DNA of 532 nucleotides from a phage. Shown here piece by piece: positions 1-532 of this stretch (positions are counted from its first letter, which is position 1; every line of letters starts with the position of its first letter). Made by a program: the position numbers and the translations under genes. The stretch is taken from sequence record EF516996.1; one strand, written 5' to 3'. The notes beneath the pieces are model-generated. The model did no database searches. It saw only the letters and a program-made list of their open reading frames with translations, and had not been told where the DNA came from.

Positions 1-532
1 GCTTCGGTCGTATCCGTGACCTTGAAGCTAAGCACTTCAAGAAAAACGTTGAGGAACAACTCAACAAGCGCGTAGGGCACGTCTACAAGAAAGCATTTAT
101 GCAAGTTGTCGAAGCTGACATGCTCTCTAAGGGTCTACTCGGTAGCGAGGCGTGGTTTTCGTGGCATAAGGAAGACTCTATTCATGTAGGAGTACGCTGC
201 ATCGAAATGCTCATTGAGTCAACCGGAATGGTTAGCTTACACCGCCAAAATGCTGGCGTAGTAGGTCAAGACTCTGAGACTATCGAACTCACACCTGAAT
301 ACGCTGAGGCTATCGCAACCCGTGCAGGTGCGCTGGCTGGCATCTCTCCGATGTTCCAACCTTGCGTAGTTTCTCCTAAGCCGTGGACTGGCATTACTGG
401 TGGTGGCTATTGGGCTAACGGTCGTCGTCCTCTGGCGCTGGTGCGTACTCACAGTAAGAAAGCACTGATGCGCTACGAAGACGTTTACATGCCTGAGGTG
501 TACAAAGCGATTAACATTGCGCAAAACACCGC
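1..532 (+). CDS. 1: Internal fragment of bacteriophage T7-type single-subunit DNA-directed RNA polymerase (T7 gene 1); partial at both ends, codon phase begins at position 3, covers approximately residues 151-326
   Basis: Frame 3 on the + strand is open across the entire window (176 complete codons, positions 3-530), whereas frames 1 and 2 hit stops within the first 75 nt. The translation is near-identical to my recollection of T7 RNA polymerase, including the KR and KK motifs at residues 172/173 and 179/180, the GVVGQD hairpin motif and the TGGGYWANGRRPLALVRTHSKK stretch. Codon usage is phage/E. coli-like. Confidence 0.95.
240..287 (+). other. Coding segment for the promoter-intercalating beta-hairpin of T7 RNA polymerase (approx. 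residues 230-245, HRQNAGVVGQDSETIE; Val237 encoded at 261-263)
   Basis: Residue numbering derived by counting from F151 at position 3. The hairpin assignment comes from established structural knowledge of T7 RNAP promoter complexes, not from anything computable in this window. Confidence 0.6.

Follow-up and report, generated by a model that had tools for sequence, protein, structure and literature searches.

Six G:C>A:T transitions in a 532-nt segment of bacteriophage T7 gene 1 point to a mutagenised or otherwise altered copy

The window and its six differences from T7 gene 1

The window, by which we mean the whole 532-nt stretch of DNA that was analysed, lies inside gene 1 of bacteriophage T7, which encodes the single-subunit T7 RNA polymerase (T7 RNAP), and it covers codons 151-326 on the plus strand. 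In a megablast comparison, the window aligns with positions 3619-4150 of the T7 reference genome, NC_001604, as a colinear and gap-free match with 98.9% identity and 100% coverage. Read from window position 3, the gene 1 frame is free of stop codons throughout. Its 176 residues match the Pfam family RPOL_N (PF14700) with an E-value of 1.7e-13 and a score of 51.2 bits, compared to a cut-off of 30.1 bits, and the T7 RNAP chains in the PDB align with them at residues 151-326. The encoded stretch is part of the N-terminal domain of the enzyme. When wild-type T7 gene 1 (NC_001604 3171-5822; the DE3 prophage; PDB entries 1CEZ, 1QLN, and 1MSW) is compared to the window, the two agree at 526 of 532 nucleotides and at 172 of 176 residues, and the difference consists of six G:C>A:T transitions that give rise to the amino acid substitutions G198S, S202F, A247T, and P274S.

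Apart from gene 1, no annotated feature lies within NC_001604 3619-4150. There are no promoter-like matches in the window, and the six changes create no such signal. Two weak terminator-like matches are present on the minus strand, at positions 66-47 and 474-461, and neither of them includes a changed base. The small open reading frames found in other frames or on the other strand, such as those of 95 and 42 amino acids on the minus strand, were set aside as by-products of the coding sequence.

The window shows the same 98.9% identity to about 100 further T7, T7.1, and DE3 records, and to 27 E. coli chromosomes that carry T7 gene 1 (DE3 lysogens and T7 Express-type strains), all of which are wild type across the window. 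A 28th E. coli chromosome, that of strain BL21-AI, is 98.3% identical to the window. In the RefSeq assembly of BL21-AI (NZ_CP047231.1, locus 2053-4704), the T7 RNAP gene has 8 differences from NC_001604. They are of mixed type; seven are nonsynonymous (V92M, N165Y, H176R, L246P, K333R, E580V, and E717G) and one is silent (T794T). These could represent either a genuine strain allele or an assembly error.

Differences were called base by base against NC_001604 3619-4150, and the six lie at 3731, 3762, 3775, 3824, 3909, and 3990 of that genome. All six are G:C>A:T transitions, with four G>A and two C>T changes when read on the coding strand. Four of these are missense changes and the other two silent; insertions and deletions are absent. 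The preliminary description of this DNA had listed five differences, at positions 144, 157, 206, 291, and 372, all of one class, and had stated that four of them change the amino acid. The bases and codon effects of all five are confirmed by comparison with NC_001604, as are the four amino acid changes and the single-class spectrum, and the check that it had named, a comparison with the T7 reference, shows that the two sequences are not identical. Its count was incomplete, however, in that a sixth transition, the G>A change at position 113, lies outside the 144-372 span and was missed.

We considered each site in relation to a comparison set of 22 natural T7-like gene 1 loci, taken over the same 532 nt. 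At position 113 (plus strand), a G preceded by a purine is changed to A, which converts GAG to GAA and is synonymous (E187E); the A is frequent among natural T7-like relatives, occurring in 12 of the 22 loci. The second silent change, G>A at position 206 (plus strand), likewise converts GAG to GAA (E218E), and the A at this position is found in the five most distant natural loci. The G>A change at position 144 (plus strand) converts GGC to AGC and is missense (G198S). The base is invariant in all 22 natural loci, and Gly198 is retained in homologues with at least 64% identity and is variable in remoter ones. Also invariant in 22 of 22 natural loci is the base at position 157 (plus strand), where C>T converts TCT to TTT to produce the non-conservative missense change S202F; in homologues, residue 202 is Ser, Thr, Glu, Ala, Gly, or Val, and is never aromatic. 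The missense change at position 291 (plus strand; G>A, GCA to ACA, A247T) is a natural polymorphism, with Thr247 occurring naturally in two of the loci (L003 and L009), in vB_EcoP_LNA7, and in Kvp1. The same substitution is part of Mut7 (F162S/A247T), a T7 RNAP variant obtained by error-prone PCR (bioRxiv 10.1101/2024.05.23.595468). Finally, C>T at position 372 (plus strand) converts CCT to TCT and produces the missense change P274S at a nearly invariant proline, which the alignment shows to be present in 14 of 15 homologues, down to 38% identity. The four missense changes are the mix of harmless and probably harmful substitutions that would be expected of blind mutagenesis. With S202F and P274S, the encoded enzyme is probably impaired rather than improved.

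The C>T change at position 157 also removes the window's sole BbsI/BpiI site (GTCTTC, positions 155-160). Because the change is missense, the loss of this site looks like a coincidence rather than a case of Golden Gate domestication. Deliberate design of the allele was considered and rejected: no restriction site of at least 6 bp is gained, the BbsI site is the sole one of that length affected, and design is unlikely since a designer would avoid losing the BbsI site through a missense change such as S202F. It is also disfavoured by both silent changes moving to the rarer Glu codon.

Natural T7-like divergence and sequence collections

Natural T7-like phages differ from T7 in this stretch in a manner that is quite unlike that of the window. 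Among 175 distinct differences collected from relatives with at least 87% identity, 30% are G:C>A:T and 15% are nonsynonymous (a fraction of 0.154), compared to 100% and 67%, respectively, for the window. Individual relatives show 25-65 differences from T7 here, of mixed type and about 85-100% synonymous, which is what the preliminary description had supposed natural divergence to look like. The nearest non-T7 relatives differ from T7 at no fewer than 25 sites, with 0-3 nonsynonymous changes. If substitution were uniform, six of six differences would be G:C>A:T with a probability of 2.7e-5, and with the natural T7-like spectrum this probability becomes 6.9e-4. The probability of at least four nonsynonymous changes in six is 6.5e-3 under the natural fraction. 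When spectrum and coding effect are taken jointly, the likelihood is 4e-6 for natural divergence and 0.29 for an unselected, G:C-specific mutagen, a ratio of about 7e4. Furthermore, more than 100 independent T7 and DE3 records match the reference exactly in this stretch, except for experimental-evolution lines with 1-3 changes, and the record with 3 changes is that of a mutagenised isolate. The pattern is very unlikely to be natural.

It follows from these comparisons that ordinary divergence, whether in a wild T7-like phage or in a drifted laboratory stock, is scarcely credible as the source of the window, even though three of its six states (113A, 206A, and 291A, the last encoding A247T) do exist in natural relatives. 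At most two of these are found in any one relative, as in the locus L003, where 113A is combined with 291A; 113A is never seen with 206A. One relative, vB_EcoP_LNA7, is marginally nearer to the window by protein than T7 is. All of the relatives resemble T7 more closely than they resemble the window. This finding, together with the limit of two of the six states per relative, also excludes recombination with a wild T7-like phage.

The protein similarity of vB_EcoP_LNA7 (OM630586.1), a natural Teseptimavirus from Brisbane wastewater, is 98.3% to the window, compared to 97.7% for T7. It is closer than T7 solely because of its natural A247T.

We are all but certain that the window is not a wild virus, and that it is a copy of gene 1 that was mutagenised in the laboratory or altered in some other way. 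The preliminary description had reached this same view, proposing a mutagenised or altered sequence in place of a wild phage isolate, and the exclusively G:C>A:T differences, unlike those of natural relatives, bear it out. In proposing a G:C-specific mutagen, or an alteration that was either deliberate or accidental, it had named the right class of explanation for a spectrum of six G:C>A:T changes in six.

We then looked for the allele in sequence collections. By megablast, it has no match in phage, plasmid, or E. coli collections. A 31-mer spanning positions 144 and 157 has no exact match in viral, genome, or metagenome contigs; a 24-mer covering G198S has none in viral contigs; a 24-mer covering S202F is absent from viral and genome contigs; and a 27-mer covering P274S is absent from viral and metagenome contigs. 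As a positive control, the wild-type 24-mer at the S202 site matches 8 viral contigs. The exact 176-amino acid product is absent among 15 billion proteins. No PDB chain carries these changes, and in the literature searched we found no paper that pairs G198S, S202F, or P274S with T7 RNAP. One apparent literature match for A247T, in a preprint on interferon-stimulated genes, was discarded, since the residue is in the gp4 primase and not in the RNAP.

A word-indexed search of 5.8 billion proteins returned five short, unrelated fragments with 54-76% identity and did not return T7 RNAP itself. Absence from that search is therefore not evidence of absence.

Selection, sequence context, and candidate agents

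The preliminary description had also remarked on an excess of nonsynonymous changes. Relative to the natural fraction of 0.154, that excess is real (P = 6.5e-3), but it vanishes when the changes are judged against what mutation by itself would produce. The window's reading frame allows 272 different G>A or C>T changes, and an enumeration of these shows that 63.6% are missense, 5.1% are nonsense, and 31.2% are synonymous, so that 68.8% are nonsynonymous. The observed four of six is typical of this unselected expectation (P for at least four = 0.72; omega about 0.9). There is therefore no excess that needs explanation. These data indicate no visible purifying selection in the window, and they do not speak for positive selection. 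That purifying selection seems to be lacking, measured as four of six relative to the 33% seen in viable mutagenised isolates, is not significant by Fisher's test (P = 0.17). A high nonsynonymous fraction needs to be judged against the mutagen-specific expectation, which is 69% here, before selection is invoked.

This result bears directly on the suggestion that the window derives from a functionally selected, laboratory-evolved T7 RNAP, produced by directed evolution, PACE, or a deaminase-driven scheme, in which the four amino acid changes were enriched because they alter the enzyme's properties. We regard this as quite unlikely. Parts of the T7 RNAP N-terminal domain in this region refold between initiation and elongation, a circumstance that we count in favour of selection, and P274 and its neighbours have been changed repeatedly in viable mutagenised phage. 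Four of the six changes are missense, but this equals the neutral mutational expectation of 68.8% and is no excess. All residues except the changed ones are wild type, and E222K, which we take to be a well-known T7 RNAP substitution in this region, is absent. A247T came from a screen for low-dsRNA T7 RNAP variants, and A247 sits between the intercalating hairpin and helix J (bioRxiv 10.1101/2024.05.23.595468). The overlap with engineered variants that the preliminary description had thought worth looking for is thus confined to A247T of the F162S/A247T enzyme, with G198S, S202F, and P274S unpaired with T7 RNAP in the papers searched and found in no PDB chain. The mutagenesis plasmids used for PACE have broad spectra (PMC4633624), as opposed to the single class seen in the window, and LySE, the sole T7 hypermutator that we found in the literature, is a dual A and C deaminase system (PMC13236587) that would add A:T>G:C changes. 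With a neutral nonsynonymous fraction and none of the usual marks of directed evolution, the lab-evolved reading offered in the preliminary description is not supported. Error-prone amplification, which it had also named, fits a single-class spectrum poorly.

We next considered whether the sequence context of the changes identifies an agent. A 5'-purine-G context is found at four of the six sites (baseline 0.46; P = 0.27) and a TC context at three of the six (baseline 0.23; P = 0.14), each of these being based on six events. Pyrimidine-C (YC) accounts for five of the six (three TC and two CC; baseline 0.41), with P = 0.047 before correction for the five contexts tried. CpA and CpG are each found once in six, with a baseline of 0.27 apiece. 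There is no strand bias among the six changes (four G>A and two C>T; P = 0.39) and no significant clustering (span P = 0.10). Along the window the order is G>A, G>A, C>T, G>A, G>A, C>T, such that the two kinds of change are interleaved and show no polarity toward the fragment ends. With six events, context does not suffice to tell one agent from another. In the chemically treated T7 isolates of the K and P series, which are described below, 60% of events are likewise at YC, and the YC signal therefore does not discriminate between agents.

Several processes that produce G:C>A:T changes were nonetheless ruled out. Repeat-induced point mutation (RIP) was dismissed with only one of the six changes at CpA. 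Bisulfite conversion, which the preliminary description had raised in the form of bisulfite-like damage, does not agree with the alteration of only 2 of 131 C and 4 of 145 G residues, on both strands. Ancient-DNA damage was ruled out by the lack of end polarity.

Another candidate origin is enzymatic hypermutation in vivo, in which a DNA cytosine deaminase in the carrier cell would have acted on T7 DNA or on a transgene for T7 RNAP. Such an editor might be APOBEC/AID-like, might be a bacterial toxin or defence protein with deaminase activity, or might be fused to a polymerase. Deamination of C to U on both strands gives this spectrum, and five of the six edited cytosines would follow a pyrimidine, compared to 41% at baseline. 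That test fails correction for the five contexts tried, however, alkylation-treated isolates also have 60% of their events at YC, and neither strand asymmetry nor significant clustering is seen. We judge this origin to be very improbable. A particular form of it, in which a cytosine deaminase of the cell restricts a dsDNA phage by editing its DNA in the manner of APOBEC and leaves the six transitions, with their pyrimidine-C context (five of six), as its footprint, appears more improbable still, and we know of no demonstration of such antiviral DNA editing for T7. In the one study to have looked for C>T editing of T7 DNA, in which the phage was subjected to a bacterial cytidine-deaminase defence, none was found, because the enzyme acts on dCTP (bioRxiv 10.1101/2021.04.26.441389).

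Mutagenised T7 isolates and the origin of the window

A precedent for the spectrum of the window exists in T7 itself. Isolates K, K115, P, and P82 form a single GenBank deposit series, AY264775-AY264778, and we take them to be the mutagen-plus-bottleneck lineages of Bull, Badgett, Rokyta, and Molineux (2003; J Mol Evol 57:241). In gene 1, isolate K has 27 differences from the reference, all 27 of which are G:C>A:T (14 G>A and 13 C>T), and those within the window's region are I264I, P266P, V273I, P275S, and D310N. Isolate K115 has 28 differences, 27 of them G:C>A:T, and carries the same five within the region. Of the 19 differences in isolate P, 18 are G:C>A:T, with R150R, H230H, and P274L falling within the region; isolate P82 also has 19, 17 of which are G:C>A:T, and it carries the same three. 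Altogether, 43 distinct events are represented in these isolates. A 5'-purine-G context is found in 31 of the 43 (72%), relative to a baseline of 47% (P = 9e-4), a preference that is the expected footprint of an alkylating agent. Only 33% of the events are nonsynonymous compared to 64% expected (P = 2.8e-5), indicating purifying selection in viable phage.

Two features of these deposits deserve mention in their own right. Lineages K and P, which are otherwise independent, share the synonymous C>T changes A38A and H790H (gene 1 coding positions 114 and 2370), which suggests either a common pre-mutagenesis ancestor that differed from NC_001604 or parallel changes. In addition, the isolate P deposit (AY264777) has an N at gene 1 coding positions 1637 and 1704.

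When the isolates and the window are considered together, four independent G:C>A:T changes from three sources fall within 7 nt, at window positions 369-375 (gene 1 coding positions 817-823). These are V273I and P275S in isolate K, P274L in isolate P, and P274S in the window, and all are at 5'-purine-G. A gene-wide scan gives P = 0.016 for this clustering, or P = 0.017 if purine-G is given a threefold weight. This recurrence at codons 273-275, where the Pro-Pro motif is nearly invariant, could reflect either a hotspot of mutation or a patch of the polymerase in which changes are tolerated or adaptive.

The same observations bear on the view that the window is not a biological allele at all, and is instead the product of an in-silico change, such as simulated deamination or damage or a planted test, or of uncorrected deamination damage or low-coverage errors. 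A computer-generated, deamination-like alteration would be indistinguishable from what we observe. The allele and its three unusual missense variants are missing from the searched collections while the positive control worked, the nonsynonymous fraction equals the unselected expectation, as with purely random placement, and two changes fall where close relatives show no variation, with one replacing a proline that is nearly invariant. Uniform random substitution in silico is excluded (P = 2.7e-5), however, and a purpose-built G:C>A:T model would be needed. Among the forms of molecular damage, the absence of end-of-fragment polarity is unlike ancient DNA and the two-stranded, sparse pattern is out of keeping with bisulfite-type conversion. 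Two further points, each of which is weak evidence, favour a real mutagen: one change lies in the codon 273-275 patch that is recurrently hit in real mutagenised T7 lines, and four of six changes are at 5'-RG, as in real alkylation. On balance, we think an artificial or artefactual origin is unlikely, though it deserves to be taken seriously.

The reading that we favour, and consider reasonably probable, is that the window is a copy of T7 gene 1 after heavy G:C-specific mutagenesis with little selection. Its differences fit the marks of chemical mutagenesis, namely, exclusive G:C>A:T change, hits on both strands, and a density like that of documented mutagenised T7. On this reading, a G:C-specific mutagen would have acted on a copy of gene 1 at a high dose. 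An alkylating agent of the MNNG/EMS type or hydroxylamine would be the most likely mutagen, with an enzymatic cytosine deaminase less likely; here we infer the agent from the spectrum. EMS and MNNG are known to greatly raise G:C>A:T mutation (PMC4633624), and GC>AT mutations dominate in T7 treated with nitrosoguanidine or hydroxylamine (PMC6042481). By the alkylation route, O6-alkyl-G would pair with T, and lesions on either strand would be fixed by replication as G:C>A:T transitions. The outcome would be six independent events in 532 bp, equivalent to 2.2% of the G:C pairs. The copy would then have been recovered with little or no selection, perhaps as a clone from a mutagenised library, as a mutation-accumulation line, or as a read or contig from a mutagenised T7 population. 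We infer that the event took place in a laboratory.

Heavy G:C>A:T mutagenesis of T7, gene 1 included, has been documented and deposited since 2003, and the phenomenon is in this sense an ordinary one. For annotation, the window should be flagged as a non-natural and, from its sequence, probably impaired T7 RNAP allele, and it should not be annotated as a wild variant.

Compared to known systems, the window differs from engineered T7 RNAPs and resembles chemically mutagenised T7. Mut7 (F162S/A247T) shares A247T with the window, whereas F162 is wild type in the window, and the window's changes belong to a single class as opposed to a broad spectrum. None of the six mutations is common to the window and isolates K, K115, P, and P82, and because no mutation is shared, the window does not come from the K or P lineages; it is an independent allele of the same kind. 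The 33% of nonsynonymous events in the isolates and the 67% in the window do not differ significantly with n = 6. In other respects the likeness is close. The phage and the gene are the same, the changes are near-exclusively G:C>A:T and affect both strands, the proportion of G:C pairs hit is comparable (1.3-2.0% in the isolates, with 1.3% for P and 2.0% for K, compared to 2.2% in the window), and the isolates carry several changes in this very stretch, including codons 273, 274, and 275. According to the summary in PMC6042481, T7 populations exposed to nitrosoguanidine during growth or to hydroxylamine (Springman et al., 2010; Bull et al., 2013) are like the window in being GC>AT-dominated, and they have high per-genome mutational loads.
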